A stretch of DNA of 64,000 bases, from the IMG/VR virus record IMGVR_UViG_2529292828_000009; one strand, given 5' to 3'. Every line of letters starts with the position of its first letter. Position 1 is the stretch's first letter. Both the position numbers and the translations under genes were made by a program. Shown piece by piece: positions 30,201-63,659 of this stretch. The notes beneath the pieces were generated by a model that saw only the letters and a program-made list of their open reading frames with translations, was not told where the DNA came from and ran no database searches. The stretch comes from a virus (Duplodnaviria; Heunggongvirae; Uroviricota; Caudoviricetes).

Positions 30201-30264
30201 CGCTTCAGGGCCCCGGTAAAGGGGCCTTGCTATCAATTTGTCATTTCAATTACGCGAAATTTAT

Positions 30265-31245
30265 ATGAACGCAATAATATCGCCCGATTATTACTATGTT
30301 CTTACCGTTGCTGGTCAGTCTAATGCCATGGCGTATGGCGAAGGACTGCCATTACCGGACAGGGAAGATGCGCCTCATCCCAGAATTAAACAATTAGCGA
30401 GATTTGCGCATACGCATCCCGGAGGCCCGTCATGTCACTTTAACGACATTATTCCACTGACTCACTGCCCACACGATGTTCAGGATATGCAGGGTTATCA
30501 CCATCCTCTGGCAACGAATCATCAAACACAGTACGGCACCGTTGGCCAGGCACTGCATATTGCACGGAAATTACTACCCTTTATTCCTGATAATGCAGGG
30601 GTTCTCATCGTTCCATGTTGCCGTGGCGGATCGGCTTTTACCGCGGGCAGCGAAGGGACATATTCAGAACGGCACGGAGCCAGCCATGATGCTTGTCGTT
30701 GGGGAACGGATACTCCGCTGTACCAGGATTTAGTCAGCAGAACGCGAGCCGCACTGGCAAAAAATCCGCAGAACAAATTCCTCGGCGTATGCTGGATGCA
30801 AGGCGAATTTGACTTAATGACCAGTGACTACGCGTCACACCCTCAACACTTTAATCATATGGTTGAAGCCTTTCGTAGGGATCTAAAACAATACCATTCT
30901 CAGCTTAATAATATTACTGACGCGCCGTGGTTTTGCGGCGATACCACCTGGTACTGGAAAGAAAATTTCCCGCATTCGTATGAAGCTATTTATGGCAATT
31001 ATCAAAATAATGTTTTAGCCAATATTATTTTCGTCGACTTCCAGCAACAAGGTGAAAGAGGACTGACGAACGCGCCTGATGAAGACCCGGACGATTTAAG
31101 CACGGGATATTACGGTTCAGCGTACCGGTCACCGGAGAACTGGACGACGGCACTGCGAAGCAGTCATTTCAGCACGGCAGCCCGTCGGGGGGTTATTTCT
31201 GACAGGTTTGTAGAAGCAATTTTGCAGTTTTGGCGTGAAAAGTGA
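30265..31245 (+). CDS. nanS: 9-O-acetyl-N-acetylneuraminate esterase NanS
   Basis: Start at MNAIISPDYYYVLTVAGQSNA; 326 aa. Confidence 0.9.
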   Translation: MNAIISPDYYYVLTVAGQSNAMAYGEGLPLPDREDAPHPRIKQLARFAHTHPGGPSCHFNDIIPLTHCPHDVQDMQGYHHPLATNHQTQYGTVGQALHIARKLLPFIPDNAGVLIVPCCRGGSAFTAGSEGTYSERHGASHDACRWGTDTPLYQDLVSRTRAALAKNPQNKFLGVCWMQGEFDLMTSDYASHPQHFNHMVEAFRRDLKQYHSQLNNITDAPWFCGDTTWYWKENFPHSYEAIYGNYQNNVLANIIFVDFQQQGERGLTNAPDEDPDDLSTGYYGSAYRSPENWTTALRSSHFSTAARRGVISDRFVEAILQFWREK

Positions 31246-31252
31246 GCGTTCA

Positions 31253-31903
31253 TTAATTTGATTTATTCGCATCCATCAACGCTTTTAACTCCTCCGGCGT
31301 AAAAGGTGGTTTGCGTCGGTGCAACATCGCATGGCAATTAGGACACACAGGAAGCAAATCATTAACTGGATCCAGCAGGTAATCCTCTTTAACGGCTGAA
31401 AGCGGCACCAGGTGATGCATATGGATAAAGCCCTCAGCGATATCGCCATAGATCTTCACCAGATCAACGCCGCATACGTTGCACTGGCATCCGTGATATT
31501 CGACTGCTTTCTCGCGAGCTTTTTTATCGCGTTCATAGCGGTTTACCGTCACCTTTATCGCCGCACCTTCAACGTAGGTCCCCTGCGACGGCAACTCATC
31601 CGGGAACAGAACATCGGCTATGGGAGCCGCAGCGGCTTTATCCTGATGAATATGAAATCCCTGATCTATAAGTAGTTTGACGCATTTAGATTTTATTCCG
31701 CCGGTGAAATCCGCAGGGGTAAATTGCGTCCCCGTCATCAATGTCGCTGCGATGCCAGCAATCGCCTTCGAGGGGTAACGTCGGCCATGATATTCAATTT
31801 CATACAACCGTGCAGGCTGGAACTGATGAGTTTCTCCCGCATCCCATAAATGAATAGCTTCGATGATATACCGCCGCGGAAGATGATCGGGGAGTTTATT
31901 CAT
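31253..31903 (-). CDS. HNH endonuclease with an unassigned ~110-aa N-terminal domain
   Basis: C-terminal CQCNVCG...HMHHLVPL...CPNCHAMLH HNH zinc-finger nuclease motif. Confidence 0.65.
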   Translation of the reverse strand: MNKLPDHLPRRYIIEAIHLWDAGETHQFQPARLYEIEYHGRRYPSKAIAGIAATLMTGTQFTPADFTGGIKSKCVKLLIDQGFHIHQDKAAAAPIADVLFPDELPSQGTYVEGAAIKVTVNRYERDKKAREKAVEYHGCQCNVCGVDLVKIYGDIAEGFIHMHHLVPLSAVKEDYLLDPVNDLLPVCPNCHAMLHRRKPPFTPEELKALMDANKSN

Positions 31904-32668
31904 AGAGAATGTCCTTATACGTTCTCAGAACAAGCAGCAAAAAAACAAATGAGATCAAAGTAATATATCTTCACTTGCAGGCTTGAACAGCAGAAAATTT
32001 GCGAGCATGATCGCAATTATTTCACTGCCAGGGATATCAATGGCTTCCAGTAAATCGCTACAGCAGGCAATTGCCAATATAAAAATCTGGCATAAGGGTG
32101 AACAGCGCGCACCGCATAAACCATTGTTATTGCTATACGTATTAGCGGGATACCTGAATGGACATCCACGCCTTTTCGATTATTGTAGTGGAACAGTCTA
32201 CGAGGATGCAGTTCGAAGTGAGTAAGTAAAGGTTGCTGGAAACGATCAATGCCGCCATACAATGATATTTGAGGATCAACAATGAGTAATAAAAACTACG
32301 AAAGTCACCGCAAAGCGATTGTTAGTAAAGGTATACCACCCGCTCTATTAAATAGGCTCACCAATTCGGATGTTCAGGTGATCAATACCTTCTTAACACG
32401 AGTGAGCAAACTGGAACTATCTCAACAAGAGAAAGACTGGATCATAAAAATCATCTCTATGGTTTAGAGAATTTCAGCCTTGTAGCCTTTCAAGGGTTTT
32501 GTGTGGGTACAAACATTATCGAATCGGGATATAGCCGCAGCTGTAGCTGTATCCACATCAGTAAGTTGATGTAGGTTGACTTAGGTTGAGCGAAAAATAG
32601 CGAAAAGCCTTGTGTGGCGCGGATTTCAGTCATAAAAAAACGTCCGTTGACGTCTATTGATGTTCCGA

Positions 32669-32704
32669 TGGTGCGAAGGTGCGAAGGTGCGAAGGCCGGA
32701 CTCG
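32669..32704. repeat. Degenerate copy of the leuX 3-prime end (distal att of the P4-like island), with triplicated TGCGAAGG
   Basis: GGTGCGAAGG TGCGAAGG TGCGAAGGCCGGACTCG matches tRNA-end sequence GAAGGCCGGACTCG. Confidence 0.6.
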
Positions 32705-33055
32705 CATATTCATTTAAATTGTTGTAAAAAATGGATTTTATTAATAATTAATTCAATTATGCCCCCTTTTGTGCCCCCTCCATTCGCTGTTCACATTTTG
32801 ATTTTTGTTGATTATTTATCCAAAAATTATCGAAGAAATAGTCAATCCAGTTAGGTTCCGTTAAACGGATCCAAACCGGGACTTGACTCAACAAAAAATA
32901 CTTTTTTTTCGCAAAACCATGCACACTATTCACTCTGCAACTTTTAATTTATATATCAATTGGTTATGTATTAACAGTTAGGTGAAGAGTGAACTGCTAT
33001 CTCTACATTCGTACGTTTCCAATAAGAAACCCGGCATCAGCCGGGTTAGTTGTAA

Positions 33056-35440
33056 TTATTTGATTGTTAGCTCATCACACTTGGGAAGCCAGTCTGCATT
33101 ACTTTCCTCTTTTAAAGTGAGGTTAGTCTGCATTCCCTGATTAGTTCGCCGCTTCTCATAATTTAGCCCGTATTCCTTCAGCATAACTGGTAGCCCTTTG
33201 CCAAACATTGTCAGGCTAAGGGTATTTTTAAAGCCATTAGCCTCCATGTATACGAGATAGGCATGGTAAAGGTACGTACGTGGCTGGCGCGGGACAATAT
33301 TGGCGTTCCCCATAAACATGCCGTTGGTGTCAGGTAATGCCTCAAGGTAGCCACAAAAATCAAATGCTGGATCAGCATCACGCTTGATGGTGAGAGCCTC
33401 ATCAGAATTCTGCTGCGACTGAAGCAATGTTCTGGCGCTCATCGGATCGCTGAAACGCTGCATGAGCTGACGAACAATCACAGCCAGTTCTCGTGCAATT
33501 TTATCTTTCAACTGCGGATCGCGTTCTTCCGGTGCTATCTGCTCAGGAAAATGCAGAATAACTCTCCTGCGGGACACACCACCACTGCGATCAGTGAAGC
33601 GCATAGGATTATTATTTACGGCCAAGATAACCGCCGGAATATGTGTTGAATAAGCATTCTGATATTTGGGGTCCACAGATACTGCATCGCCACCAGTTAT
33701 AGCCTTAAGCCCGGCGCCGTCGCCGCTCCACTTCTCCTGATCAGGCAGGCGAATAAGAGAAAAACCTATCAGAGCCGCACGTTCTCGCGGGGACTCCAGC
33801 GTTTCAATGGTCGCAGAGGTGGCGTTATCCTCTCCAGCAAGCATGGTCGCAATTTCAGCCAGAATACTTTTGCCACTTCCACCAGGGCCAGTCACTTCCA
33901 GAAAGAGCTGCCAGTCATAACGGTTCGCCAGCACCATAAATAACGCTGCAAGAATAATGTCGCGTTTTGCTGGCTTGTGTCCGGCGGCCCGGTCCAACCA
34001 ACGCCAGAATGCCGGGGCATGAGTTTCAAGCGTTTCCCCCTTTACCGGTGGCGTGAAATCGACTTCACACAGGGTACGCAGCCAGTTCTCTTTACAGTGC
34101 GGACTAAAAAGCCCTGTTCGCGTATCGAGAACGCCATTACGAAAACCAATCAGATGACGTGACGGATTTTGCTGCTGCGGAACAATTAACTTTAATGTTT
34201 CCACCAGTGAGGCAATTTTTCCTGAGGAAAACGGTGCCCCGAGGCGCTGGAAAAGGGCTGCGACATCTCGGGCAAAATCTGACTGAGAAATAACTTTCCA
34301 CGCTCCAGACTCGTAGCGGGATAAAAGCTGCCCGTTCGGATCAACCGCCAGTGCATCCCTGTAATGCTCCCGAACCCTCTGAGCTTTTTCGCTGACACTC
34401 ATCGCTGTGAATTCTGCTTCACTCATTGTGTCGAAAGGACTGGCGTTATGTGGCTTCAAAGCCTCAAGAATTGCCTTCCGGGTGGATTCCTCTCCGTATT
34501 GGGTAAGCGCATCATTCCAGTCACCAAAAACCGGTGGCAGCACAATGTCACACTGACTCGCTTTTGCAGCAGTTTCAGCCCTGTTCTGGCCTGAACCATT
34601 CAGATCGCGGTCCGCTGCAATAATTAACTGATATCCAGGATACTTATTATGGGCAACGCTGCTCAGAGAAAGAAAGTTGACCGACGAAAATGCCACCATG
34701 ACGGCTTCTCCTGTCAAATAATGAATGGTAAGCGCCGTGGCGTAACCTTCCGTAATCCAAATCCTTCTTACAGAACTCCCGCCCCCTTCTATCAGATGAT
34801 AGGCCTCCTTAACCTGACCTCCTTTAAGAAAACACTTGCTACCATTGCTACTGATAAGCTGAATATTCACCAGCTCCCCGTCAGCGTTATAGAGTGGGAC
34901 GATCAAATCACCGGGGCGGAACATCACACCACCGGCCTTATGAGCTGAAGTCAGCTCATGGCAAATATGCTCCGGGAAACCTTTATGTGTAAGATAAGTG
35001 TTTCCGGCAGATTCACGCGAGGCTTGCAGCAGTCGCGCGGCAAGTGCTGCCGCTGCATCTTTCCCGCTATCGGTATCGGCGGTTAACGTCCTGACCTCGG
35101 AATTAACTATAGACAGATCATGTGTCAGTCCATGTATCCTGTCAGCTGCTTCACTGATATCCACATTCAGTGCCCTGGTGACAAGCGCTAAACCATCCCC
35201 GGCTCCGCACTGATTGCAGAACCATGTTCCGCGTCCTTCCTGATCGTCGAAGCGAAAACGATCTTTACCGCCACAGACCGGGCAAGGCTGATGGCGATTT
35301 TTCAATATATTCACGCCCAGCGCTGGCAGAATCTGAGCCCAGTGACCGCGGGCAGCCTTCACGGCCTGACTGACTTTCATTCCTGACATGACGCAGTTCT
35401 CCCTCAGTGTAAAACCGGCTTTTTGATGTGACGGACGCAT
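33056..35440 (-). CDS. P4 alpha-like primase / helicase
   Basis: N-terminal zinc-binding CPVCGG...CNQCG, central Toprim-like region, C-terminal Walker A GPGGSGKS; true start probably at MSGMKVSQ. Confidence 0.8.
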
Positions 35441-35727
35441 AACTCATCCATTACGGCTATTCCGAGCTGGGAGAGTGCGGGACAGGACATTAGAGGGCCG
35501 TATTCCATCAGGTCTGAAAGCAGGGCGCAGGCGATTTCCATGCCTTTTGTTTGCCCGTGCTGTCGCAGATAAAATCCTTCAAGCTCACGGGCAATAGCGG
35601 TTTCAATTTCATCCAGAGTGAGCTGCAGATGGCGGTTTTGCTGATAGCAGGCACTCAACCAGGCGCAGGCTACCGCGCGGCGATACAACGCTACCCGAAG
35701 TGAAAGGGAAAGAGTGCGTGATTTCAT
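35404..35727 (-). CDS. P4-like hypothetical protein upstream of primase
   Basis: 107 aa ORF, position. Confidence 0.3.
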
Positions 35728-35987
35728 TGCACCACCTCCATGTTCATGAGGTCATCCTGGCAACGCTGTACCACGCCATCAAGCTGCTCTGTCATCAGAT
35801 AAATCAGGGAAACCAGTTGTTCACATTGAGCACTGGCAGGTTTTTCGTAGCAATCCTGAAGAACAGCCATTCCAGTGACAAACTCTCCCACGTTACGAAG
35901 ATGCTTCAGGCGGAGAATATCGTCATAAGAGATTGCGGCGTGATTCATTAGATCACCTCCCGGACAGGCAGGCGAGCAGCAAGACAA
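35724..35987 (-). CDS. P4-like hypothetical protein
   Basis: 87 aa ORF, position. Confidence 0.3.
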
Positions 35988-36139
35988 AGCACATACTCAT
36001 GGACCAGTGAAAGACGTGCATGATGCTCATTGCTGGCGATGATACGCAGCATACTGATACGTGGTTTACGTTCTGCACGACGAACGGCGGCAAAAACAAA
36101 TATAAATTGAGGATGTGACGGGGCGAGGATCGTAGCCAT

Positions 36140-36410
36140 AAGGGCAACCTCCAATAAGTAGCGGTAAATGCCACCACCGGAGTTCCTACGCTCATGGGTG
36201 GTGACCCGAACGGGGGTAGGAATACCGGCCTTATTGGAAACCGGCCAGCCCGAAGGCTGCCCCGCCCGGACCACCATTATCTGAAAGGGGCTAAGGTATA
36301 AGCACCGCAGCCCGAAAAATGGGTGTGCCTGAGCAACGACGTAAAAAAAGACGCACGGCGCGTCTGGTGTCGCCAATAAGTAACTCGGGTTCCTACGCCC
36401 GGCAGCCGAT
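36140..36410 (-). ncRNA. Candidate structured RNA / P4-type RNA immunity region (direct repeats flanking a complementary element)
   Basis: CCAATAAGTA...GTTCCTACGC at 36151-36191 and again at 36373-36400; complementary GGCCTTATTGG at 36227-36237; GC-rich, no convincing ORF. Confidence 0.35.
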
Positions 36411-36492
36411 TTTGCGGCAGCGGGAAAACTATACCTGGAAAAGATATCAGGACGCAAGCCAGAAAAAAGGAGATGAGACTGCAAAGCAAGTT

Positions 36493-36753
36493 TCACGCAT
36501 GGCCTCCTTGCTCGCGGGCAGCAATTCGCGCCGCCATCCATGCACTGACCTCCGACTGTACCCAGGCCACATTTTTTCCACCCAGGGATATCTGCTGCGG
36601 GAAGGCATCGCGGCTGATAAGGTCGTAGATGGTTGAACGGGATAGCCCGCAAAGGTGCATCACTTCAGGTAATCGTATGAAGCGCTCCTGCTGAGCCGGA
36701 ACCGGGAGCACCGGAGCAGCTGGTGCCGGGGTGGAAACGGAAATACTATTCAT
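36493..36753 (-). CDS. AlpA-family phage transcriptional regulator / excisionase-like
   Basis: [25 protein letters not shown]. Confidence 0.75.
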
Positions 36754-37299
36754 CTGGCTACCTCTCTAATATGTTTACAACAGTCCGGGCAATTCCATGC
36801 GGATTCAGGTAGCTCCTTATTATGTTTATATAAGCGGCTCGCGCATGCTTTATTTATTTTGTGTGAAATGTTGATTTCTCAAAAAATAAAACAGCTAAAA
36901 ACCGTATGAAACGAACAAAAACAAACAATTCCTTTATGGAATATAATAAGGAGCATCAATAATAAAAAAGTCTATTACACTAGGCAGGATCACAGCTCAA
37001 ATCTGAACCAGCCCATATCATTCAGGGCTTTACATCATAAGCACTAAGACAACACCTGATTAATAAAAGAGCCAAAAACGGCCAAAAATAAACAGCTCAC
37101 CATATGTATCAATAAATCCGATGATTAAAGAAATTAAATTACCATCTTACTTCCGCATGTATCCGAATGTGTTTAATGAACATCAGACAAATTCATTTTT
37201 ATGAATATTTTCCTGAAATGCAACTGAGTGCAGGGAGGTTGAATGTTCAATTATTAAACAGATATAAGACATCTTTTATTCTTTACATAGAATATGTAT

Positions 37300-37503
37300 T
37301 GAATACTGGTGAATATTGGTGAGGAGAAAAGATCCAGTAATAAACTGAAATAAATATCGCGACTTATATGAAAAAGAAATATATGTTTAATTTTATCTCT
37401 GTGAACAGTCATGAACAGTAGATGATCACTTTAATTAAAACACTACACCACTTAACCACATGTATTTACTATATTTTTATTGAAGTGAACAGTAGTGAAT
37501 AGT
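37300..37503. repeat. Clusters of tandem 9-10 bp repeats (GTGAACAGT / GTGAATAYTGG) upstream of the sid-like operon
   Basis: gtgaacagt at 37401-37409, atgaacagt 37411-37419, gtgaacagt 37485-37493, gtgaatagt 37495-37503; gaatactggt gaatattggt at 37301-37320. Confidence 0.5.
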
Positions 37504-37625
37504 ATGTATTAAAGGAAGCGTGTAGATCAGACATGACACCTTTCTCTGGCTAGCCAGAACAAGGTCATTGTTCAGTCACTGACACAATCCTCCTCGGTAG
37601 TGCGCTTGTATGGACCCCGGCACAA

Positions 37626-38411
37626 TTGACACAACAACAAAACACTACCGGAGCAGCCATGACAACTGTTAACCAGATCTCTGATGCAAACATTACCCCC
37701 ACCCTCCCGCCGAAAATTCGCGAAGCGGTGGAAAAAGTTAAGGCAGCAAAAGCTGTCTGGCAGGAAGAACGGCGAAAACAAACCGAAGCTGCTGCAATGA
37801 CTGAAACTATCCGTAAACGTCAGGAAGATACAAAAACGGAGACGCAGGCGCTTAATGATGAATGGCGAAACCTGTTTCGTGAGAATCAGGGGAATATGAC
37901 GCCACGAATGAAAAAACTGCGGGCAGAAATCGCCCTCGGACGCGAAACACTAGATGAGTTCGAAGATTTGCTGGCTGCTCAGGCTGCAGAAAATGAATTC
38001 CTGCCATGGAAAACTGCGGATGCTGCAAACCGCTACATCAGCGAACATAATCACCTGATTGAAACTCATGCAGTGTGGCTCTGGAATGAGTTTATGAAGG
38101 AACACGGCCAGAAACTTATTCAGATCCTTGGACTGCTGAAAATGACTCTGGGCCGAAGCGCATCTTCTGTTATCGGTGTAGTTCATACCGTAAACGACCC
38201 CGAAAGTGTGCTGAAGCAATTTATCAGCGAGCAACTCACCACTCCGGCACTGTTCTGTAACGTATCTTCAACGGATGATATTGCCCTGCCGGGGATCAGC
38301 ATTTATGCGGACGATAAAGCCATACAGGATGCCAGACAATCACCCAGCCCTGCAGCACGTTCCCGGATGCTTAAACAGCGTGACATGGCTAAAGGGGGCG
38401 AGAAGGAATGA
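37626..38411 (+). CDS. P4 Sid-like protein (putative external scaffold / capsid size determination)
   Basis: 261 aa coiled-coil-rich protein first in the psu-containing operon; assignment by position. Confidence 0.4.
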   Translation: MTQQQNTTGAAMTTVNQISDANITPTLPPKIREAVEKVKAAKAVWQEERRKQTEAAAMTETIRKRQEDTKTETQALNDEWRNLFRENQGNMTPRMKKLRAEIALGRETLDEFEDLLAAQAAENEFLPWKTADAANRYISEHNHLIETHAVWLWNEFMKEHGQKLIQILGLLKMTLGRSASSVIGVVHTVNDPESVLKQFISEQLTTPALFCNVSSTDDIALPGISIYADDKAIQDARQSPSPAARSRMLKQRDMAKGGEKE

Positions 38412-38962
38412 ATACCGGAACCATTACTCAGGAAGCTCTCAACGATTACCGCGCGGCAATAAAAAGCTGGCTGACACTACGTAATGTGCAAAGTACCAGC
38501 CAGCTTCGTCTGGCTGCTTTGCTGGATACTGAAGAAAAACCCGCAGCATATGCCAGCCAACTTGAGGATCTTCGTGAGCGTCTTGCACTCCTCGAATGGC
38601 AGATTAACTGTGCCGCCCGGGATGGTCTTTATGCTCACCAGATTGTGCTGGAAAGCTGTGTTACAAGCGCAACTGAAAACTTCATGAGCGAGCATGGTGA
38701 TGCACTCACTGACGCTCTGGCTCCTTTTCTTTGTGCACCATACGGGCTTGAGGCGGCAATGAAAATATTACGAACCGCTGTAGCCCGACAAACGGAAGTC
38801 CGTACTCCGGTAATTTCAGCAGCATATAAGAGCATTATCGACGAAACCGGATTAACGGTGGATGCATCAATGCGCGCTGATGCTTCAGCCAGTTTCACCC
38901 CGGCACAACATAAAGTTTTCCTGGCCCGCCTTAACCGACTTAATGAAAAAGGAGTGTGCTGA
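38408..38962 (+). CDS. P4 Psu-like protein (polarity suppression / capsid decoration)
   Basis: 184 aa; HGDALTDALAP and SFTPAQ motifs resemble P4 Psu as I recall it. Confidence 0.55.
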   Translation: MNTGTITQEALNDYRAAIKSWLTLRNVQSTSQLRLAALLDTEEKPAAYASQLEDLRERLALLEWQINCAARDGLYAHQIVLESCVTSATENFMSEHGDALTDALAPFLCAPYGLEAAMKILRTAVARQTEVRTPVISAAYKSIIDETGLTVDASMRADASASFTPAQHKVFLARLNRLNEKGVC

Positions 38963-38963
38963 T

Positions 38964-39236
38964 ATGGCCCTGAAGTGTCCTGAATGTGGCGCGGTCGCTC
39001 ACGCCAGAACCAGCGCCTATGAAGCTCCGTCGGTTAAACGCTCATGGTATCAGTGCCAGAATCTGGAATGTTCCTGCACATTTACCGCACTGGAAAGCGT
39101 GGATACGATAATTATGAAGCCTCGGTGCAATGAACAGGAATCAGACAAAGCAAAAATACCGGAAAAACAACAGCAAACTCTCAATCGCTATGGCTCCGCG
39201 TCAAAGCTGTCAAACCGTCAGCAAATTCCTGTCTGA
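38964..39236 (+). CDS. Ogr/Delta-family zinc-finger late transcription activator
   Basis: MALKCPECG...YQCQNLECSCTF; start at 38964 with AAAAAGGAG upstream. Confidence 0.75.
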   Translation: MALKCPECGAVAHARTSAYEAPSVKRSWYQCQNLECSCTFTALESVDTIIMKPRCNEQESDKAKIPEKQQQTLNRYGSASKLSNRQQIPV

Positions 39237-39842
39237 TTAGCAAAATACGACCACGAAGTCCCGGTCCAGTACCGGGATTTTTTACGCCTTTTCCCTGGCT
39301 GGCCTGAGAGCGTATGAGTGCATATCTATGGCGCATGAAAACGCATGAGTCTCATGCGCCATTTTTGACGCGAAAGCCCTTGTGTGGTGGCTTCTGAGAC
39401 GATTTACGGGGTGCATGAAAACCAGTCTGTTAAGCGAAGCTGGCAGGCGGGCGGGGCTGCTCGCGCTAAGGGAGAAAATAGCAAACTCAGCCGCGCAGGC
39501 GGTGACAATGATTGACGAGATACTGGCTGGCAGTTGCTGAAATCTCCGCAATGATTCAAGAACTGCAGTGTATCGATGCAGCACACGTAAACTGAGCGGC
39601 GCTACGGGTAATATTTATAGATTTGTCATCCTTAGTGAGCATGGTTCTCACTCTTGTAACCTCTACCTGTACAAGATATCGTAAGACCTCAGATCAAACA
39701 TGCACGTGTATTAAAGGTGGGCAAGCGTGGCGGGAAGATAATTGTGCGCACTGTAGTCAAAGATAGGGATTGTGATTACTTTTTCTTCCAGCCGTGGTGT
39801 AGTAAATTATTGGGAACAAACTCTTAATGACATCAATGGATA

Positions 39843-41141
39843 ATGATTATGACTACAAATCCGGACGGATACATCTCATTTTTAAAACCCGGTAGTAACG
39901 ACTGGAAAGCATTAGATAGTAAATCGTTTATTTATTGGCGAGACTACATAACGAATGAAAGTTTAGAAGAGTCAGGAGATTCTATTTCTCCAGCACAATC
40001 TCTTACTGATGGTGAAAAGAAGGAGTTGAAAGACAATCAGGCATATATAAACGAACTATTACTAAAATCATTACAATTCCCAAATCTTGCATTCTTCGCT
40101 GGGAGTGGTACTTCGCTTGGGGACGTTGGAGGACCAAGCATGTGGGATCTCTGGAAGTGTGCAATGTGGAGTGAATCTTCTATAAACGAGGATGGTCAAT
40201 TAAAACCTGATGCTCAAATTGTTTGTGATAAAGTAAAATATAAAGAGCGAGAGTATCCTAACATAGAACACTTTCTTTCTAATTGTGAAGCATATTTAGC
40301 ATTTCATGATGATGAAGAAGTGTTGAATTTTTTAAATAAAGTTAAAACAATTATTTTAGACAAATGTCGCTCATTTATTGATGATGGCAACTGTGATCTT
40401 TCAGCTTACATCAATTTATTACAAAAAATGGGGAGGAGGAGAGTCAGAGATCCTAGACTAAAAGTTTTCACAACTAACTATGATTTAGCCTTTGAAACAG
40501 CTGCTTCTGAATTAGGAATGATGGTAGTTGATGGTCTTTCATATACAGGAGTTCGCAGATTCGATGGTAAATATTTTAACTACGATGTTGTTAAAAGAGA
40601 TGAAAACGAGCATGAGTTTGTAGAGGGCGTATTCCAGTTATTTAAACTCCACGGTTCTGTAAGTTGGATAAGAAAGGATGGGCAAATATATGAATCCAGC
40701 CAACCAACAGCAACAAACGCATGTCTAATATATCCAGCGAAAGGTAAATATCAGCAAGCCTTTATTCAACCTCACTTAGAATTACTTTCAAGATTGTTAG
40801 ATTTCTTGAGAAAAAGAAATAACTGTTTAGTTATATCTGGATTTGGTTTCAATGATGACCATCTTTCTGAACCAATTTACTCAGCAATAAAATCCAATCC
40901 AAGCATGAGGTTGATTATAGTAGATTTCAAATGTGCAACTCATATTCGGAATAAAGGGGGGGACGGTTCTAGTAAATATTGGGATTTACTAAAACAACTC
41001 TCACTATCAGGTTATGACATTCACTTCATAAATGCATCTTTCAGTGATTTTGTTAAATTAGTTCCCAATCTTAAAGCATTAACCCCAGCAGAACAGTTGG
41101 CTAAGGTAATAAAACAAGTAGGAGTTAACAATCAATTATGA
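39843..41141 (+). CDS. SIR2-family (sirtuin-like NADase) protein, partner of HerA
   Basis: FFAGSGTS Rossmann loop, VFTTNYD, KLHGS motifs; 432 aa. Confidence 0.7.
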   Translation: MIMTTNPDGYISFLKPGSNDWKALDSKSFIYWRDYITNESLEESGDSISPAQSLTDGEKKELKDNQAYINELLLKSLQFPNLAFFAGSGTSLGDVGGPSMWDLWKCAMWSESSINEDGQLKPDAQIVCDKVKYKEREYPNIEHFLSNCEAYLAFHDDEEVLNFLNKVKTIILDKCRSFIDDGNCDLSAYINLLQKMGRRRVRDPRLKVFTTNYDLAFETAASELGMMVVDGLSYTGVRRFDGKYFNYDVVKRDENEHEFVEGVFQLFKLHGSVSWIRKDGQIYESSQPTATNACLIYPAKGKYQQAFIQPHLELLSRLLDFLRKRNNCLVISGFGFNDDHLSEPIYSAIKSNPSMRLIIVDFKCATHIRNKGGDGSSKYWDLLKQLSLSGYDIHFINASFSDFVKLVPNLKALTPAEQLAKVIKQVGVNNQL

Positions 41142-42859
41142 TTAATACAACACTACAGCTTGGTATTTTGAGGGGCGACCTTAAGGTTGGAGTAGTCTCA
41201 TCAATTTTTGCTCAAACAGTTAGAGCAAATTTAATCTATGCAGGGGAACTCAGCGGAACATATATAGAAGGTTGTAGATATGGAAAAGGAGAAGTTGGTG
41301 AAATATTATTAATAGAAGGACAACAATCTATTGTTCTTGGCCGTTTAATAGAGGTTAAATTACCAGAGCGAGATAGAGGTGAAATATCTGTCGGGTCTCA
41401 AGGAAACTTCAAAGTTGATGCTATCGGCATTATACAACTTCTTGGAACTATTGATCCTTCAAATTTTAGAATTGATTCAGGAATCAAATCATATCCTCGA
41501 TTAGGAGATCGAGTTTATTCTGCTCCCTTAGATTTTATTTCTTTAATACCAGAATTAATTAATAAAGGAATTAAAGATAACGAGGAAGAAAGAATAGGTA
41601 TTGTATTAGGCATTATATCTGGAGGGGCAACAAGTATAGTAACTGTTGAACCTGATAAACTCTTCGGTCGTCATTGTGCTATCTTAGGAGCTACAGGCGG
41701 TGGAAAAAGTTGGACAACTTCCAAGTTAATTGAAGAGTGTTCGAATTACGAAAACTCTAAAACTATAATAATTGATGCAACCAGTGAGTATAGATCGTTT
41801 AAATCTGATTATTGTTTACATTACCATTTAGGTGCCCCAATAAATAAAAACATAAATTCTTTAGAATTTAGAATTCCACCTACCGACTTTGTTGAGTCAG
41901 ACTTTATTGCCATGTTCGATCCTTCTGGAAAAGTACAGGGTCCTAAGCTAAAAGAAGCGATAAAAAGCCTTAGATTAGTAGCTTTAGAACCTAGAATAGC
42001 AACCGATGGTATTTTAAAAAAAATCAATCAACCTAAAACAGATTATCGACGCGCAATGAATACTGGAGACAACTCTAAACTTGTTGATAATCCATCACAA
42101 CCATTTGATATAACAAAACTTATAAAACAGATTGTACAAGAATGTTGTTACGATAATGGAGATAATACTTGGGGAAACGCTGCAACTCAAGACTTAAGCT
42201 ATTGCTCATCTTTGTTAACCAGAATTCAAGCAGTAACGTATGCCAACTCGTTAAGGTCTGTTTTTAATAGTAACGAGGATATATCCACACTAGGTGAAAT
42301 ATTAGAAACTTTTTTACAATCTGATAAACGAGTCCTAAGGTTATGCCTAAGTGATGTTAGCTATGAGTTTTATGCTAGAGAAATTTTAGCCAATGTAATC
42401 GGCAGAAAACTTTTAACTTTAGCTAGGCTTGAAAAATTCAGAACAAGACCGCTGTTAGTTATTGTTGATGAAGCCCATAACTTCCTTGGCAAACGGGTTG
42501 GTTCTGAAGATCATGCAATTAAACTTGACGCTTTTGAGATGATTGCAAAAGAAGGCAGGAAATATGGCCTTAATATATGCTTAACAACTCAAAGACCCAG
42601 AGATATCACTGAAGGTGTGCTTAGTCAAATTGGAACCTTATTGGTTCATCGCTTAACAAACGACCGAGATCGAGAAGTCGTTGAGCGTGCATGCGGTGAA
42701 ATTGATAAATCTGCAGCATCTTTTCTACCAAGTCTCAAACAAGGTGAAGTTGCTCTTGTAGGGGTTGACTTCCCTATTCCTATGACCATCCAGATAGATA
42801 AGCCAATATATCCACCAGAATCTGATTCTCCAGGCTATTGCAATATATGGAAAAAATAA
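41138..42859 (+). CDS. HerA-like FtsK/HerA-family ATPase
   Basis: Walker A AILGATGGGKSWT, Walker B LLVIVDEAHNF, TTQRP; 4-nt ATGA overlap with SIR2 gene. Confidence 0.8.
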   Translation: MINTTLQLGILRGDLKVGVVSSIFAQTVRANLIYAGELSGTYIEGCRYGKGEVGEILLIEGQQSIVLGRLIEVKLPERDRGEISVGSQGNFKVDAIGIIQLLGTIDPSNFRIDSGIKSYPRLGDRVYSAPLDFISLIPELINKGIKDNEEERIGIVLGIISGGATSIVTVEPDKLFGRHCAILGATGGGKSWTTSKLIEECSNYENSKTIIIDATSEYRSFKSDYCLHYHLGAPINKNINSLEFRIPPTDFVESDFIAMFDPSGKVQGPKLKEAIKSLRLVALEPRIATDGILKKINQPKTDYRRAMNTGDNSKLVDNPSQPFDITKLIKQIVQECCYDNGDNTWGNAATQDLSYCSSLLTRIQAVTYANSLRSVFNSNEDISTLGEILETFLQSDKRVLRLCLSDVSYEFYAREILANVIGRKLLTLARLEKFRTRPLLVIVDEAHNFLGKRVGSEDHAIKLDAFEMIAKEGRKYGLNICLTTQRPRDITEGVLSQIGTLLVHRLTNDRDREVVERACGEIDKSAASFLPSLKQGEVALVGVDFPIPMTIQIDKPIYPPESDSPGYCNIWKK

Positions 42860-42897
42860 TTAGTAGGGTCTTTGACCCTACTTTAAAATTTTTAAAG

Positions 42898-44169
42898 CTA
42901 GATAGTTTTTTTTGCAAAGTCGTAGGGGGTTATATATTCCTGAGTGTTAGCATCAAGATAATCGGCCCACCACTGAACCATTAAACGACGCTCATCCAAA
43001 TGCTCTGAAGTATGAATATAAGCAGCCCTAACGCTATTACGCTCAGAGTGGCTTAGCTGACGTTCTATCGCGTCATCACTCCACAACCCTGATTCGCCCA
43101 AAGCACCGCGCGCCATAGTTCTGAATCCATGCCCGCAAACTTCGGTTTTTGTGTCATACCCCATTGTGCGCAAAGCACTGTTAACCGTGTTTTCACTCAT
43201 AACTTTAGTTGCGTCATGATCTCCCGGAAACAGTAGCTCTTTATCACCACTAATCTGCTTAAGCTGCTCTAACAAAATCATCGCCTGCCGACTAAGCGGA
43301 ACGATATGCTCCTCTTTCATCTTCATCCCACGGTACGAGTAACGGACACCTTTAATTTCTTCTCGTTTTGCCGGTATACGCCAAAGAGATTTATCGAAGT
43401 CGAATTCATCCCAGCGAGCGAAACGCAACTCACTGGAACGCACAAAAGTTAGTAAGGAAAGCTCGACTGCAATCCGTGTCATTAAACGGCCACGATATGC
43501 AGCAAGACGTGCAAGAAACTCAGGGAAACGGTTAGAGGGTAAAGCTGGATAGTGTCGTGCTTTGGTTGTCGATAAAGCACCAGCCATATCACTGGCTGGG
43601 TTTGAGTCGATATAATCGTTCTGTACGGCATAACGCATAATAGCTGTAACACGCTGCTGAAGACGCTGCGCGACGTCATGCTTACCACTGGCATCAACTT
43701 TTTTAATCGGGGCTAACAGGTGGCTTGTTTTAAGCTGGCGGATATCGGACGATCCGATATGAGGGAAGATATAAAGCTCAAGATAGCGAAGAACGCGCGC
43801 TCTATGGTCTTCACTCCAGCGCTTGTTACTGGCATGCCATTCACGAGCGATCGTTTCGAAAGTATATGCCCCCGATTTCTCGGCCTGAGCCGCTTTCTGC
43901 TCGGCTTTTGGATCAATACCCTGCACTAATAATCTTTTAGCTTCATCACGTTTTGCCCTTGCCTGGGCAAGTGTCACAGTAGGCCAAACGCCAAAAGCGA
44001 GGCGATCCTCTTTTTTGTCTGAAGGGCGTCTGTATTTCATACGCCAGTATTTAGATCCCTTGGCCGAAACCTCAAGATACAAACCGCCACCATCGGCCAT
44101 TTTGTAGGTTTTGTCTTTTGGCTTTGCGGTCTCGACCAGTCTGGCGTTGAGCTTCATTTGGGGGCACAT
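42898..44169 (-). CDS. P4-family tyrosine integrase of the satellite island
   Basis: Homologous to the integrase at 62135-63385 (shared AVMRYAVQN, FVRSSELRFARW, VCGHGFR, RAAYIH); probable start MKLNARL at 44157. Confidence 0.85.
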   Translation of the reverse strand: MCPQMKLNARLVETAKPKDKTYKMADGGGLYLEVSAKGSKYWRMKYRRPSDKKEDRLAFGVWPTVTLAQARAKRDEAKRLLVQGIDPKAEQKAAQAEKSGAYTFETIAREWHASNKRWSEDHRARVLRYLELYIFPHIGSSDIRQLKTSHLLAPIKKVDASGKHDVAQRLQQRVTAIMRYAVQNDYIDSNPASDMAGALSTTKARHYPALPSNRFPEFLARLAAYRGRLMTRIAVELSLLTFVRSSELRFARWDEFDFDKSLWRIPAKREEIKGVRYSYRGMKMKEEHIVPLSRQAMILLEQLKQISGDKELLFPGDHDATKVMSENTVNSALRTMGYDTKTEVCGHGFRTMARGALGESGLWSDDAIERQLSHSERNSVRAAYIHTSEHLDERRLMVQWWADYLDANTQEYITPYDFAKKTI

Positions 44170-44320: not shown

Positions 44321-44344
44321 TGGTGCCGAAGGCCGGACTCGAAC
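44321..44344. repeat. 24-bp direct repeat of the leuX 3-prime end (att junction between the two islands)
   Basis: TGGTGCCGAAGGCCGGACTCGAAC identical to 63575-63598. Confidence 0.85.
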
Positions 44345-44691
44345 ATCGCAACTATCCTTATGATCTTTAGTAATTAAAGCAATCTACATTGTCGATGATA
44401 CCATCATTGATACCATCAGACCCGATTGATGATAATCGAACAGTAATAAAATATGACTAAACAATTTATGCTTCAACATAAGATTGAATGCTTTGATCTA
44501 CCATTTTAATGCAGTGGAAAAATTTTTAACACAATACTTAAGAAAAATAATTTCATATAAAAACTACATTTCATTTCATATAGTTAACACACCAAAAACA
44601 ACTGTATATAAACCCAGTAAAAAATGGTAGAATCACTATTGTGTTCAATTGTTGAACATTTATAATACATTTGTCGGATAGGGGGGTGTTT

Positions 44692-45279
44692 ATGCAAAGG
44701 AACACATACAACAAAGTAGGTCTATACATCCTATCTTTAGCTATGCTTTTTGTTTTTATTATTATCCTGACTGCCAAAATCCCCTTTTGCTTCACTTCGG
44801 ATTGTAGCTTCATAGGTTTGAAGAGACTTGTATTAACAAATATTGTTCCTATTGTTTGCTTTGTATTTTTTCTATTTAGTATTTATTTTTATAATAGATT
44901 AAAAAACATAACAAAATACAATGGACAAGATAGCGTTAAAATAACATCATGTCAAAGCGAAAGCTATGAAAGTTTAACATTCTTAGCAACATACATTGTA
45001 CCTTTTATGGGGTTTAGTTTTGAAGACATGCAAAAGAATATAGCATATCTTTTGCTTGTAGTAGTAATAGGCATTATTTTTATTAAAACAGACAAGTATT
45101 ATGCGAATCCAACTTTAGCTCTGTTTGGCTTTAAACTATACAGGGTAAATATACTACACCCAGGAAGTGGAGAAACAAAAAATCTGATAGCTATTTCAAA
45201 TGATGTATTAAAAGTGGACGATAATGTTTATTATAGTTTCTTTGATGAATTTGTTTTTATAGCAAGGAAAAAAATATGA
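44692..45279 (+). CDS. Four-TM membrane protein, KwaA-like (Kiwa defence system component A)
   Basis: Four hydrophobic helices; ATG at 44692 after a G-rich RBS; 4-nt overlap with the downstream gene; call is by architecture only. Confidence 0.45.
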   Translation: MQRNTYNKVGLYILSLAMLFVFIIILTAKIPFCFTSDCSFIGLKRLVLTNIVPIVCFVFFLFSIYFYNRLKNITKYNGQDSVKITSCQSESYESLTFLATYIVPFMGFSFEDMQKNIAYLLLVVVIGIIFIKTDKYYANPTLALFGFKLYRVNILHPGSGETKNLIAISNDVLKVDDNVYYSFFDEFVFIARKKI

Positions 45280-46223
45280 CTACTCAGCAGTTAAAAGAAA
45301 AAATTTCAAAAATAATTGATAACTTTAGCGGAATCAGGGTTGTATTTACTACTACTGCTAATGAACTAAAGCTTTCCAGAATTGAAGGGAGTGCATTAAA
45401 TAGCATAGCTGAAGGGTTTATTGACAAAATCAAAGAAGACATTATAAATAATGAAGATCTCACCTCACCATTGCTGTCCAATTTTGATGATAGAAAAAAT
45501 GCCTTGTTTAAATTTGATTACGAACAATATCCTGAAGAATTTAACAAAATCACTCAGGCCATCGCTATCCCTCCTAACTCACAAGATTATTATAACCCTT
45601 TAAATAAATTCACAGATGTGAAAGGAATTATAATTTTAATAAGTGGAGATAACAAATGCCTGGCTCTTTATAAAAACAAAACTAACCTTGCAGTATTGAG
45701 AAATAGCAGAAAAATGTTTAATTTAGTCCCTGACCCTGATGGATACTTGAAACAACTCCCTAATGAGATATTACGGTTAGATTTCAATTATGATCTATTA
45801 TCAATTGGTGAGGATTTTTACATTAAAAATCACAAGACTCTTGAAACTCAAATGAAATTTCATCAAGTGATTGAAGCCCAGGCAGTTATTGCTTTAAATT
45901 CTTTACGGGATTCACTACTAATTGAAGACATATCAGGTTTAGAAAAGAGTTCGAGAGAAATTTCATTCGCTAGAAAGTTGGCAAAAATCTCCAAACATTC
46001 TCCTGTTTTGGGGAAAATAGATACTAAAACAATTATCGATTATGTATCCCAACATAAATATTTATCTGCAATACTTCAGATTAATGAAGCAGGAAATAAG
46101 TTATTAATTAAAACCAAGACATCACAGAAGCATTTCATTAAACTCATGAGCGATGATTATTTACAATCAGATCTAACTAAAATAATATACATGAGCATAG
46201 CAAAAGACAGATTAGATGAATAG
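45276..46223 (+). CDS. KwaB-like soluble protein (DUF4868-like, Kiwa component B)
   Basis: 315 aa, coupled to the upstream 4-TM protein; call by size and architecture. Confidence 0.45.
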   Translation: MTTQQLKEKISKIIDNFSGIRVVFTTTANELKLSRIEGSALNSIAEGFIDKIKEDIINNEDLTSPLLSNFDDRKNALFKFDYEQYPEEFNKITQAIAIPPNSQDYYNPLNKFTDVKGIIILISGDNKCLALYKNKTNLAVLRNSRKMFNLVPDPDGYLKQLPNEILRLDFNYDLLSIGEDFYIKNHKTLETQMKFHQVIEAQAVIALNSLRDSLLIEDISGLEKSSREISFARKLAKISKHSPVLGKIDTKTIIDYVSQHKYLSAILQINEAGNKLLIKTKTSQKHFIKLMSDDYLQSDLTKIIYMSIAKDRLDE

Positions 46224-46237
46224 AATTTTAAGTAGAA

Positions 46238-46278
46238 GTGACAAATATTATAAACCATTCTTGAAATATATTTGTCAC
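46238..46278. terminator. Bidirectional hairpin between convergent genes
   Basis: 11-bp perfect inverted repeat GTGACAAATAT (46238-46248) / ATATTTGTCAC (46268-46278). Confidence 0.5.
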
Positions 46279-46287
46279 TATTACTAA

Positions 46288-46959
46288 TCATTCGCGTGCT
46301 TGATTATTTATGCTGGATGTTCTAATTGTTGCCGAATGCCAATACCCACCACTATATGTTCTTGCTATAGTAATAAATCCAGTACAGGTAATTACTGTCA
46401 TTAAAATCAGGAAAATATAATAGAAATTAAGCGGAGCTTTCAAATCAAAAGGAGGTAACGAATACACCAGCAACCCTATCCATACAATAGTTATAAATAA
46501 ACTAATAATTTGGTTTATCTTAGATACTGATATTGGAGATGGACCAGTAAGTAAATGAACCGAAAACTCTTTTATTCCTTTCGGTTTTGCACGAGATAAC
46601 ACCACTTTATATAGTGGACCATTAATATTATCTTCTAACATATCGACATGTTTTTCCCAGTTTCCCTGCCAATATTTACTACCACGGTTAACACAGAGCC
46701 AACCGAATGAAAATACAATTCCCAGTGAACACAGTAATACGGATAAATCTGTCTTAGCTGTAGAAGAGGAAGTCTGTATAGCAACAAAACCAGCTAAAGT
46801 TGCCGCTATAAAAGTCCAGAAATAAGTTGCTCTTTTCCAGTAATGGTCTATCTCATATTTCCGTATATCTAAAGCCTGTAGCAGAGCATTCTTATTACAG
46901 TCTCTATCATTAAGAAAACGGCTACGATATTCCTCATCTGAAAATGGAGTAATTGGCAT
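46288..46959 (-). CDS. Orphan multi-TM membrane protein with a SLATT-like N-terminal arrangement
   Basis: Charged helix, then TM pair (YFWTFIAATLAGFVAI ... LSVLLCSLGIVFSFGWLCV), then two further C-terminal TM helices; no match recognised. Confidence 0.5.
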   Translation of the reverse strand: MPITPFSDEEYRSRFLNDRDCNKNALLQALDIRKYEIDHYWKRATYFWTFIAATLAGFVAIQTSSSTAKTDLSVLLCSLGIVFSFGWLCVNRGSKYWQGNWEKHVDMLEDNINGPLYKVVLSRAKPKGIKEFSVHLLTGPSPISVSKINQIISLFITIVWIGLLVYSLPPFDLKAPLNFYYIFLILMTVITCTGFITIARTYSGGYWHSATIRTSSINNQARE

Positions 46960-46985
46960 ATTGATTTACCTCTATTTATAATAGT

Positions 46986-47013
46986 AAAAGAGGGGTCCCC
47001 CCCCCTCTTTTTT
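46986..47013 (-). terminator. Rho-independent terminator at the 3-prime end of the RM gene
   Basis: AAAAGAGGGG (46986-46995) / CCCCTCTTTT (47002-47011) stem with flanking T-run. Confidence 0.55.
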
Positions 47014-50000: not shown

Positions 50001-50290
50001 CGACTATCGATACGCCCCTTACTGTTGCTTCTGCCGGTCGTGTTGTATTTAATACCATCAATAAAAATTTCTTTTTCGGGACGGTAATCAATACCAATGA
50101 AATCTTTAATGAAAGGAATAAAAGCAAGGTCGAAACCAGAAACAACTTCTGCTTCATTTTTGGCTAAATATGAGGACTCATTAATTTTTTTAGATATAAT
50201 ATCAGCAGCTAAAAGAAAATCTGAGTCAGTAACAATCTTTTCTTGAGCTTTGAACTTAATTTTTTTTTGAATTTCTTCTAACACAGCCAT
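47012..50290 (-). CDS. Type IIG restriction-modification enzyme, MmeI-like (PD-ExK nuclease + N6-adenine methyltransferase + target recognition)
   Basis: N-terminal IDSRIGSLVIEFK (D...ExK), SAM motif DPCCGSGTF, catalytic VGNPPW; 1092 aa in one polypeptide. Confidence 0.65.
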   Translation of the reverse strand: MAVLEEIQKKIKFKAQEKIVTDSDFLLAADIISKKINESSYLAKNEAEVVSGFDLAFIPFIKDFIGIDYRPEKEIFIDGIKYNTTGRSNSKGRIDSRIGSLVIEFKHREKLKKDNDINKAVLQIQAYLDSLKLEGNQRYVGVLTDGINYLIRDTDGILTSKLQPLDKNAIKKICGLLVLLNKKALHPKNIVDDFCYGSPSLTTQLIGNLLSALENNMTGRSQMLFNEWKELFRLAHDDKSQQTAILERKLSLEDIAGHRLLTNDDEYKVLYALQTAYAIIVKIIAYKTLSGLVFENDYNFSDMINSNSESMRNYLYTLEEGAIFRKYGILNLLEGDFFSWYCTKEQWGDDIFISIKNIFSLLSEYEEGNLFKEGEKVYDLFKDLYMNIIPDKVRHSLGEFYTPEWLAEHLISSAEEHVVNKNNWTAIDPCCGSGTFIITLIGKVLSRTHTDSKAKLKDVITSVKGIDLNPLAALTARINYFINISHLLDEGSEVEIPIYLGDASYVPEKVIIDGIDCLRYEINTLQGSIYIEMPTQALSDSHKFSKAIVDIERYIKLRDRDSVFAKLIEVSGDISSSPSIYEKLKTLSDKFVELEERDWNGIWARIVTNFLTTANLGKFNMVVGNPPWIDWKNLPAGYRERIKGLCLSRSLFSGDRLTGGINLNICALISNVSAENWLEKDGILAFLMPQNILFQQTYEGFREFNFGDNQKLYLQEVYDWSESGHPFKPVTIKFATYLFSSKNVDYLKGIPLTFLTKNKTGRSLDSYSQHTHFNAISHEFSIRKEIAGTVSVSNTAFTYASDSEKLNDYRNISGYCEYHGREGIEFFPQELFLWKFKTKKANNTAIFENYQGGKSKYKVAKQMIFAETKHIYPLIKGTNIEPFGVKDVEFFVPFPYRELSRKPIPVDELVKESPMLADYFINNKQLLESQTRYNDKIIGKSNITAFYALARVGEYTYGDHFVCFRDNTKWAAAVVSQMDTPWGDKKRPLFQNHAVSISQRQDGKFITLDEAHYICAIFNSSITGEYILKSSDSRTFKIRPPINVPLYDEGNKKHRELSELSKKAHEAKANRSSFESFLRDIDGIVKVLFKNN

Positions 50291-63574: not shown

Positions 63575-63659
63575 TGGTGCCGAAGGCCGGACTCGAACCG
63601 GCACGTATTTCTACGGTTGATTTTGAATCAACTGCGTCTACCGATTTCGCCACTTCGGC
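63575..63659 (-). tRNA. leuX: tRNA-Leu (leuX-type)
   Basis: Reverse complement reads GCCGAAGTGGCGAAATCGGTAGACGCAGTTGATTCAAAATCAACCGTAGAAATACGTGCCGGTTCGAGTCCGGCCTTCGGCACCA. Confidence 0.9.

Follow-up and report, generated by a model that had tools for sequence, protein, structure and literature searches.

What is the small nuclease gene beside nanS in an Escherichia coli chromosome, and does it still encode a working restriction enzyme or is it the leftover of an older island? The question is raised by a 64,000-nucleotide stretch of DNA, here called the window, which is filed as the IMG/VR virus record IMGVR_UViG_2529292828_000009. The window is a segment of an E. coli chromosome that reaches from the fim/nan region to leuX, the gene of tRNA-Leu(CAA), at 63575-63659, and its positions 30800-33100 are 100% identical to several complete genomes. 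The genes follow in the order nanC, nanM, nanS (30238-31245), then the gene under study and two short open reading frames (ORFs). The gene under study lies on the minus strand at 31253-31903 and is complete, with 216 codons and a stop. It starts with ATG, an AAGGA Shine-Dalgarno sequence stands 9 nt upstream of the start, and RefSeq lists the product as 'HNH endonuclease' (WP_001037963.1). It was found that the protein joins the N-terminal 'head' domain of ScoMcrA to an HNH nuclease, and it is referred to below as head-HNH. The class to which it belongs, the ScoMcrA_N-HNH family (PF26345 plus PF01844), is known, but the protein itself is uncharacterised. As to its role we lean, with a little better than even confidence, towards a stand-alone Type IV-like (modification-dependent) restriction nuclease of the 'sensor + HNH' kind that would act against foreign DNA.

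The two halves of the protein

The C-terminal half (aa 122-216; 31256-31540, minus strand) opens with the pre-helix VNRYERD..AR and displays the pattern CxxC...HH...CPNCH..H of a zinc-finger HNH nuclease. It matches EcoKMcrA (6GHC, E 1.4e-3) and TagI (6GHS) in the PDB, several PHROG HNH families with a best E of 1.7e-8, and the PADLOC models for 'Type IV methyl-directed restriction enzyme'. An alignment of 89 sequences shows no or almost no variation at C141, C144, C187, C190, H163, H164, N189, H191 and H195, all of which the window protein has kept. C141, C144, C187 and C190 are the zinc ligands (Cys4) and H163-H164...N189...H195 is the catalytic motif; neither the zinc site nor the HH...N...H motif of the C-terminal ββα-Me HNH domain lacks a residue. 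The last 95 residues make up a complete McrA/TagI-type ββα-Me fold and are a predicted nuclease.

This domain is tethered by a flexible linker (aa 93-121; 31541-31627, minus strand) in which the FPDE motif (F100-E103) and E112-G113 are conserved. The predicted local distance difference test (pLDDT) score falls below 50 at aa 93-100 and 115-121, and the linker is predicted to be disordered between the N-terminal and the HNH domains. It also opens a shuffled 'linker + HNH' cassette, with the motif FPDE...EG..V.VNRYERD..AR. In numerous other fusions the match to this cassette starts near aa 95-100, and the cassette follows a wide range of unrelated N-terminal domains, Mrr_N and DUF3427 among them, with 45-60% identity. 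Since the same HNH cassette stands behind such varied N-terminal domains, the window protein is one combination in a shuffling of sensors with HNH.

The N-terminal domain (aa 1-92; 31628-31903, minus strand) has a pLDDT of 85 in the AlphaFold2 model, with predicted helices at 10-22, 45-57 and 73-80 and strands at 34-38, 41-44 and 84-87. With phmmer, aa 24-87 align to residues 29-93 of ScoMcrA (PDB 5ZMM) at an E of 1e-4, and 5ZMM residues 4-92 are the sole PDB match (E 1.1e-7) of a profile of 26 head sequences. The ScoMcrA_N label, PF26345, was taken from precomputed Pfam assignments and agrees with this match. A fold search with the head domain gave no significant neighbour except ScoMcrA, and the fold found no match in BFVD. 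The domain is thus the head domain of ScoMcrA and distinct from NEco, SBD, Mrr_N, EVE and SRA. Basic residues (R10, R41, R42, K46, K73 and K76) as well as aromatic and histidine residues (H26, F28, Y34, Y43, F66 and F83) are conserved in it, a composition that is compatible with binding of nucleic acid. In ScoMcrA itself the recognition of phosphorothioate and of 5-methylcytosine or 5-hydroxymethylcytosine (5mC/5hmC) belongs to the SBD and SRA domains (PMC6224610, PMC7461809). As the head is no known modified-base reader and has no fold neighbour beyond ScoMcrA, modification dependence is something that we infer for head-HNH.

The first-pass annotation had described a 216-aa protein with a C-terminal HNH zinc-finger motif behind an N-terminal domain that it left unassigned. 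The ORF, the RefSeq label, the PDB, PADLOC and PHROG matches and the presence of all key residues bear out the motif, and the N-terminal domain is a real, distinct unit that is confidently modelled and set off from the HNH by the disordered linker. The gap in the assignment is now filled by the ScoMcrA head, but with a domain that is not a known modified-base reader. Likewise, the profile search it had proposed for this domain led to a restriction-linked match, the ScoMcrA head, but to none of the known reader families (NEco, SBD, Mrr_N, EVE and SRA).

In its architecture the protein resembles Type IV restriction nucleases, and comparison with the known enzymes at the same time sets it apart from each of them. 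ScoMcrA (Streptomyces coelicolor Sco4631), a Type IV endonuclease dependent on phosphorothioate and on 5mC/5hmC, shares the head domain with the window protein. It has 561 aa with SBD and SRA between head and HNH, both of which the window protein lacks, and its head is without H26 and P44, which are near-invariant in the head family. EcoKMcrA of the E. coli K-12 element e14 recognises its target through NEco, an N-terminal domain that binds (hydroxy)methylated cytosine, (h)m5C, and that is not found in the window protein. The EcoWI/SprMcrA-type enzymes, described by NF045808 ('phosphorothioated DNA-binding restriction endonuclease'), likewise consist of sensor, linker and HNH without a methyltransferase, but their sensor is SBD (PF26340) and their nuclease is of the HNH_2 subfamily, whereas the window protein has the head domain and an HNH of the HNH subfamily. 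Against NF045808 the 216-aa protein scores 14.3 bits (cut-off 180), in the linker region only, and the SBD with its HKP..LLL and YP motifs is missing. TagI (SRA-HNH), VcaM4I (EVE-HNH), SruGXI/HhiV4I (wH-HNH, PUA-wH-HNH) and other modification-dependent enzymes found by screening for architecture use readers of demonstrated specificity (5mC/5hmC, N6-methyladenine), unlike the head.

Relatives, alleles and decay of the locus

Full-length homologues of head-HNH number 2,581 at E <=1e-3, mostly of 205-235 aa, and come from Enterobacterales, Shewanella and many metagenomes. The head profile alone collects 2,966 clusters (at 50% identity) with proteins of 96 to 1,567 aa. Among 89 longer members the head is joined to HNH in 38, HNH_2 in 22, EVE in 13, the McrB-type AAA_5 in 7, the NOV_C nuclease in 7, nSTAND3 in 6, DUF3427 in 4, SAD_SRA in 2 and MrcB_N in 2, and also to AspBHI_N and Mrr_N; head-EVE-HNH and head-EVE-McrB GTPase are examples of such fusions. 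Judged by these partners, which are the domain vocabulary of modification-dependent (Type IV-like) restriction, the head appears almost only in architectures of that kind. Four EcoWI-like proteins of enterobacteria supplied a hidden Markov model of the SBD; none of the 150 top-ranking head-domain representatives was hit by it, so the head-SBD fusion of ScoMcrA is not the typical arrangement.

A scan of genome contigs turned up the head domain in 5 of 80 loci, the rest being mostly other fusions of the HNH cassette, and so cannot give a systematic survey of head-HNH neighbourhoods. In E. coli, head-HNH is divergent from an NF045808 SBD-HNH gene, with McrBC adjoining. In Klebsiella aerogenes (L093 1-6636) a Type I restriction-modification (R-M) system, Mrr_N-HNH and SBD-HNH are followed by a divergent head-HNH, and in Enterobacter sp. 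MGH 24 (L024 8743-10387) an EcoWI-like SBD-HNH has Mrr_N-HNH directly after it. The Mrr_N-HNH and head-HNH proteins have the same HNH cassette at about 54% identity. On an E. coli integrative and conjugative element (ICE) a 58%-identical paralogue of head-HNH lies 4 kb from another SBD-HNH. Head-HNH of Shewanella adjoins GmrSD_N and a STAND NTPase, another enterobacterial locus adjoins Kiwa and Type I R-M, and yet another head-HNH gene adjoins a helicase-PLD nuclease. No dedicated methyltransferase stands beside head-HNH, neither in the window, where the neighbours are nanS and a pseudogene, nor in 7 other contexts. The two-domain model is thereby that of a Type IV enzyme, a nuclease fused to a separate putative DNA-sensor domain without a cognate methyltransferase.

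Among 87 homologues outside its own E. coli allele cluster, 63 alignment columns reach at least 90% conservation, and the window allele bears the consensus residue at every one of them. Other alleles do not. A common one, of the WP_001037966.1 type (L004 4001-4651), carries C187Y at a zinc ligand (codon 187 is window 31343-31345), another carries R122S, and the cluster representative has three changes at conserved columns; frameshifted and 5'-truncated variants were also found. The exact C187 and Y187 alleles each occur on at least 1,000 contigs, and as a rough estimate 6 of 14 sampled full-length copies match the identity and bit score of the Y187 allele; counts of C187 against Y187 from identity bands in complete genomes are confounded by nearby single-nucleotide polymorphisms. 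The pairwise ratio of nonsynonymous to synonymous substitution rates (dN/dS) between head-HNH alleles is 0.12-0.16, which indicates purifying selection. A promoter scan gave no consensus sigma-70 site on the strand of the gene; its expression signals are probably active, as discussed below.

The distribution of the locus was counted in 5,426 complete E. coli genomes, a gene being taken as present when at least 80% of its length was matched. The SBD-HNH gene is present in 1,707 genomes, head-HNH in 1,239 and both, as a divergent pair, in 326. Traces of the locus of some kind are left in about 4,870 genomes, and about 1,450 keep only the last 106 nt of the head-HNH gene. The state of decay varies. 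In the window head-HNH is intact and SBD-HNH ends at codon 48; in another lineage a 571-bp microhomology deletion has taken codons 1-181 of head-HNH and left SBD-HNH and McrBC intact; in K-12 the segment equivalent to window 31249-31874 is missing entirely. As read from these comparisons, head-HNH is one half of an old Type IV cassette next to nanS, a divergent pair with SBD-HNH, which is decaying in different ways in different E. coli lineages, and the locus shows that a single species can acquire, inactivate and delete Type IV restriction genes over and over again.

The K-12 deletion also explains the origin of a small protein of that strain. The gene ythB (b4802; MNKLPAHLSRQNCKIAS...) at 8598-8696 of L092 (NC_000913.3) begins with ATGAATAAACTCCCCG, which is the first 16 nt of head-HNH, with the same ribosome-binding-site (RBS) region before it. 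The ATG and first 5 codons of YthB come from head-HNH (window 31875-31903, minus strand), the rest is sequence from past the head-HNH stop, and the fusion junction falls in a short microhomology. In the window the corresponding downstream part is a 29-codon ORF (31164-31253, minus strand), antisense to the 3' end of nanS, whose ATG overlaps the head-HNH stop (TAATG) and which matches the C-terminal 25-27 residues of K-12 YthB. From the alignment, YthB is the scar of a microhomology-mediated 626-bp deletion of the head-HNH gene. YthB has been detected by tagging and immunoblot after ribosome profiling of initiation complexes (bioRxiv 10.1101/511675). Its translation in K-12 from an identical start region shows that the head-HNH start site is used.

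The divergent neighbour in the window is an SBD-HNH pseudogene of which the first 48 codons (MASSKSLQQAIANIKIWHKGEQRAPHKPLLLL...) remain at 32040-32183 on the plus strand. The stump starts at the internal ATG 32040 of ORF 31983-32225, matches NF045808 positions 2-45 (E 1.7e-16) and loses its homology at 32183; RefSeq lists it as a pseudogene. Other E. coli strains, A16 (NZ_CP028758) among them, have at the same place an intact 290-aa SBD-HNH that scores 439 bits against NF045808 and whose SBD matches ScoMcrA aa 97-232. At this locus, then, the SBD is represented by the 48-codon stump only, and by intact neighbours in other genomes. On sequence grounds the intact neighbour is EcoWI-type, which is an assignment of type only and not of identity to EcoWI itself. 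Experiments have demonstrated restriction of GpsAAC/GpsTTC-modified DNA by EcoWI, which needs no partner for full activity either in vitro or in vivo (PMC7461809). A spacer of 136 bp (31904-32039) lies between the two divergent genes and holds the RBS of head-HNH; it includes an 18-bp palindrome, TTGCGAGCATGATCGCAA, at 31999-32016, which was called as a terminator-like hairpin on both strands and could serve as an operator. In strain MIN12 (L003) the palindrome is imperfect, with one mismatch.

Beyond the stump a 520-bp segment (32184-32703) stands in place of the remaining SBD-HNH gene. It is shared up to the attachment (att) core with L004, whose island is a different one (DUF932/IS2/Hha), and it is absent beside the intact SBD-HNH genes of L003 and L005. 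The segment includes a conserved 61-aa ORF (32282-32467, plus strand; WP_000066585.1) with a GAGGA RBS, a terminator-like hairpin downstream at 32478-32495 and a full-length match to phrog_25874 (E 3.7e-47).

The first-pass annotation had seen in the 216-aa protein a Type IV-like arrangement and had suggested that it and the two short ORFs, 31983-32225 and 32282-32467, might be remnants of an older island. The arrangement holds: a sensor-like N-terminal domain precedes a McrA-type HNH, the head occurs in Type IV-like architectures, and the contexts are defence islands. Both short ORFs are present between nanS and the outermost att repeat. The idea of remnants is right for ORF 31983-32225, which is the EcoWI-type SBD-HNH stump, but not for the 216-aa gene, which is intact and under purifying selection, and it fails for the 61-aa ORF, a conserved intact small gene that is no obvious fragment.

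A proposed function weighed against its rivals

If head-HNH is a modification-dependent restriction nuclease, it could work in the following way. The head domain, with a basic and aromatic surface formed by R41, R42, Y43, K46, K73, K76, H26, F28 and Y34, would be the DNA-targeting module and would bind foreign DNA with a feature that is absent from the Dam/Dcm-methylated chromosome of E. coli. The HNH, tethered by the flexible linker of about 30 residues, would then nick or cut a short distance from the bound site. The protein would probably act as a dimer, as McrA, TagI, EcoWI and ScoMcrA do, and incoming phage, plasmid or ICE DNA would be restricted. Candidate features are a phosphorothioate context other than GpsAAC/GpsTTC, hydroxymethylated or glycosylated cytosine, 7-deazaguanine, or methylation other than Dam/Dcm. 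By our reasoning, Dam or Dcm methylation itself cannot be the target in a normal E. coli host.

Several points weigh against this proposal. The window allele falls marginally under the Pfam gathering cut-off for HNH, with 20.6 bits over aa 141-197 against 21.4; homologues at 58-70% identity exceed the cut-off with 30-31 bits, and the HNH assignment is solid despite the marginal score. The head domain of ScoMcrA has explicitly no assigned function (PMC6224610), and a literature search on head-HNH and PF26345 found neither a publication nor an experiment on head-HNH proteins. The head could be accessory, in regulation, in oligomerisation or as a non-specific DNA clamp, and not the determinant of specificity, because most multi-domain relatives pair it with an established reader (EVE, SRA, DUF3427). 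One homologue stands in a neutral, non-defence neighbourhood. Finally, E. coli can clearly do without the gene and often loses it, as the frequent inactivating variants tell (C187Y, frameshifts, 5' truncations, the 571-bp deletion and the loss in K-12).

The nuclease could also be active but independent of modification, the head being a general DNA-binding, structure-sensing or regulatory module. Head-HNH would then be a non-specific or structure-specific nickase, or an effector of the abortive-infection or toxin-like kind that is triggered by infection. We consider this unlikely, though it deserves attention: a constitutive, unregulated, non-specific nuclease would poison its host, no antitoxin, cyclase or NTPase partner adjoins the gene in the window or in the 7 other contexts, and the partners that recur are genuine Type IV enzymes (SBD-HNH, Mrr_N-HNH and McrBC). 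A phage or intron homing HNH endonuclease was excluded. Head-HNH keeps to one fixed chromosomal site in E. coli, the median number of places per genome being 1, and a search of 50,697 phage records gave no homologue of full length, which argues against homing.

It is more improbable that the gene is a functionless relic in the present strain, an intact-looking ORF that is unexpressed or has no current target. The E. coli locus is certainly eroding, as the 1,239 genomes with head-HNH, the 326 pairs, the roughly 1,450 last-106-nt remnants, the loss in K-12 and the C187Y allele indicate. The adjoining SBD-HNH is already a stump in the window, and the strand of the gene is without a sigma-70 consensus in a promoter scan that we regard as uninformative. 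Against this stand the dN/dS of 0.12-0.16, the 63 of 63 conserved positions that were kept while other alleles have changes there, a start region that is translated in K-12, and a family that is large and conserved across phyla. A dependence of head-HNH on an SBD-HNH (EcoWI-type) partner, in the manner of a two-polypeptide ScoMcrA that was orphaned here by truncation of the partner, is less probable still. Head and SBD are fused in ScoMcrA, and the divergent pair is conserved in E. coli (326 genomes) and in K. aerogenes and recurs within 4 kb on the E. coli ICE. However, about 900 E. coli genomes have a near-full-length head-HNH only and about 1,380 have SBD-HNH only, EcoWI is fully active alone (PMC7461809), SBD-HNH is not nearby in 4 of 7 contexts, no SBD occurs in the 150 closest head representatives, and the HNH domains of the two genes belong to different Pfam subfamilies, HNH and HNH_2.

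Within the favoured reading, that of a Type IV-like nuclease acting alone, a further step may be ventured. The head domain may be an unrecognised modification reader outside the SRA, EVE, DUF3427, wH, SBD and NEco types, an idea that we hold tentatively and with some doubt; a second phosphorothioate context, 7-deazaguanine or a glycosylated base would be candidate targets. Should this be true, a new Type IV specificity class would exist, with head-HNH proteins as its minimal natural enzymes, and it would account for the presence of the head domain in many multi-reader restriction proteins and beside EcoWI-type genes. A structure of the head domain has been solved (in ScoMcrA), Pfam has an entry for it, and thousands of restriction-type proteins carry it. 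The window protein is close to the simplest natural setting in which the question can be put, the head being its sole non-catalytic domain. With a clean E. coli allele, natural nulls (C187Y and the deletions) and the characterised neighbour EcoWI, the target of the head domain is directly testable, and an answer on what the head recognises could give a new modification-specific reagent enzyme.

The leuX islands beyond the locus

The core of the leuX-derived att site, GAAGGCCGGACTCG, occurs in the window at 32691-32704, 44328-44341 and 63582-63595, where 0 copies would be expected by chance. As this core of the 3' end of leuX is present three times, once in leuX itself, the right-hand part of the window is a tandem island array. 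From the positions of the cores, head-HNH and the two short ORFs sit between nanS and the outermost repeat, and 31253-32467 is outside both leuX islands. The outermost core (32691-32704, plus strand) is the boundary of a P4-like satellite. Directly before it, at 32670-32693, GGTGCGAA is repeated three times in tandem (the whole spanning 32670-32704), an arrangement that suggests slippage in, or duplication of, the acceptor-stem portion of the tRNA within the att site.

The P4-like satellite extends from about 32.7 to 44.3 kb and contains a primase(-helicase) gene (33056-35440), Sid/Psu genes and an integrase gene (42898-44169). An Icd-like protein and DUF5375 are also encoded in it (33056-44169), and two RNAs were located on the minus strand, the C4 antisense RNA at 36194-36281 and isrK at 36344-36421. 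The hotspot between the Sid/Psu and integrase genes is occupied by the genes of a SIR2-like protein (39843-41141) and of an ATPase resembling HerA (41138-42859). The second island extends up to leuX and holds further defence genes (44671-50290): a KwaB gene at 45276-46223, upstream of it a likely KwaA at 44671-45279 that is without a Pfam match, and at 47012-50290 on the minus strand the gene of a 1,092-aa Eco57I-like Type IIG restriction-modification protein.

On the other side of the locus, nanS is annotated in two ways in RefSeq (L001 5688-6032 against L002 466-1446, both equivalent to window 30265-31245). Some of the records that show 100% identity to the window in the compared part (30800-33100) have it as a truncated pseudogene, and others give an intact gene of 326 aa. 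In the window the nanS ORF is intact.

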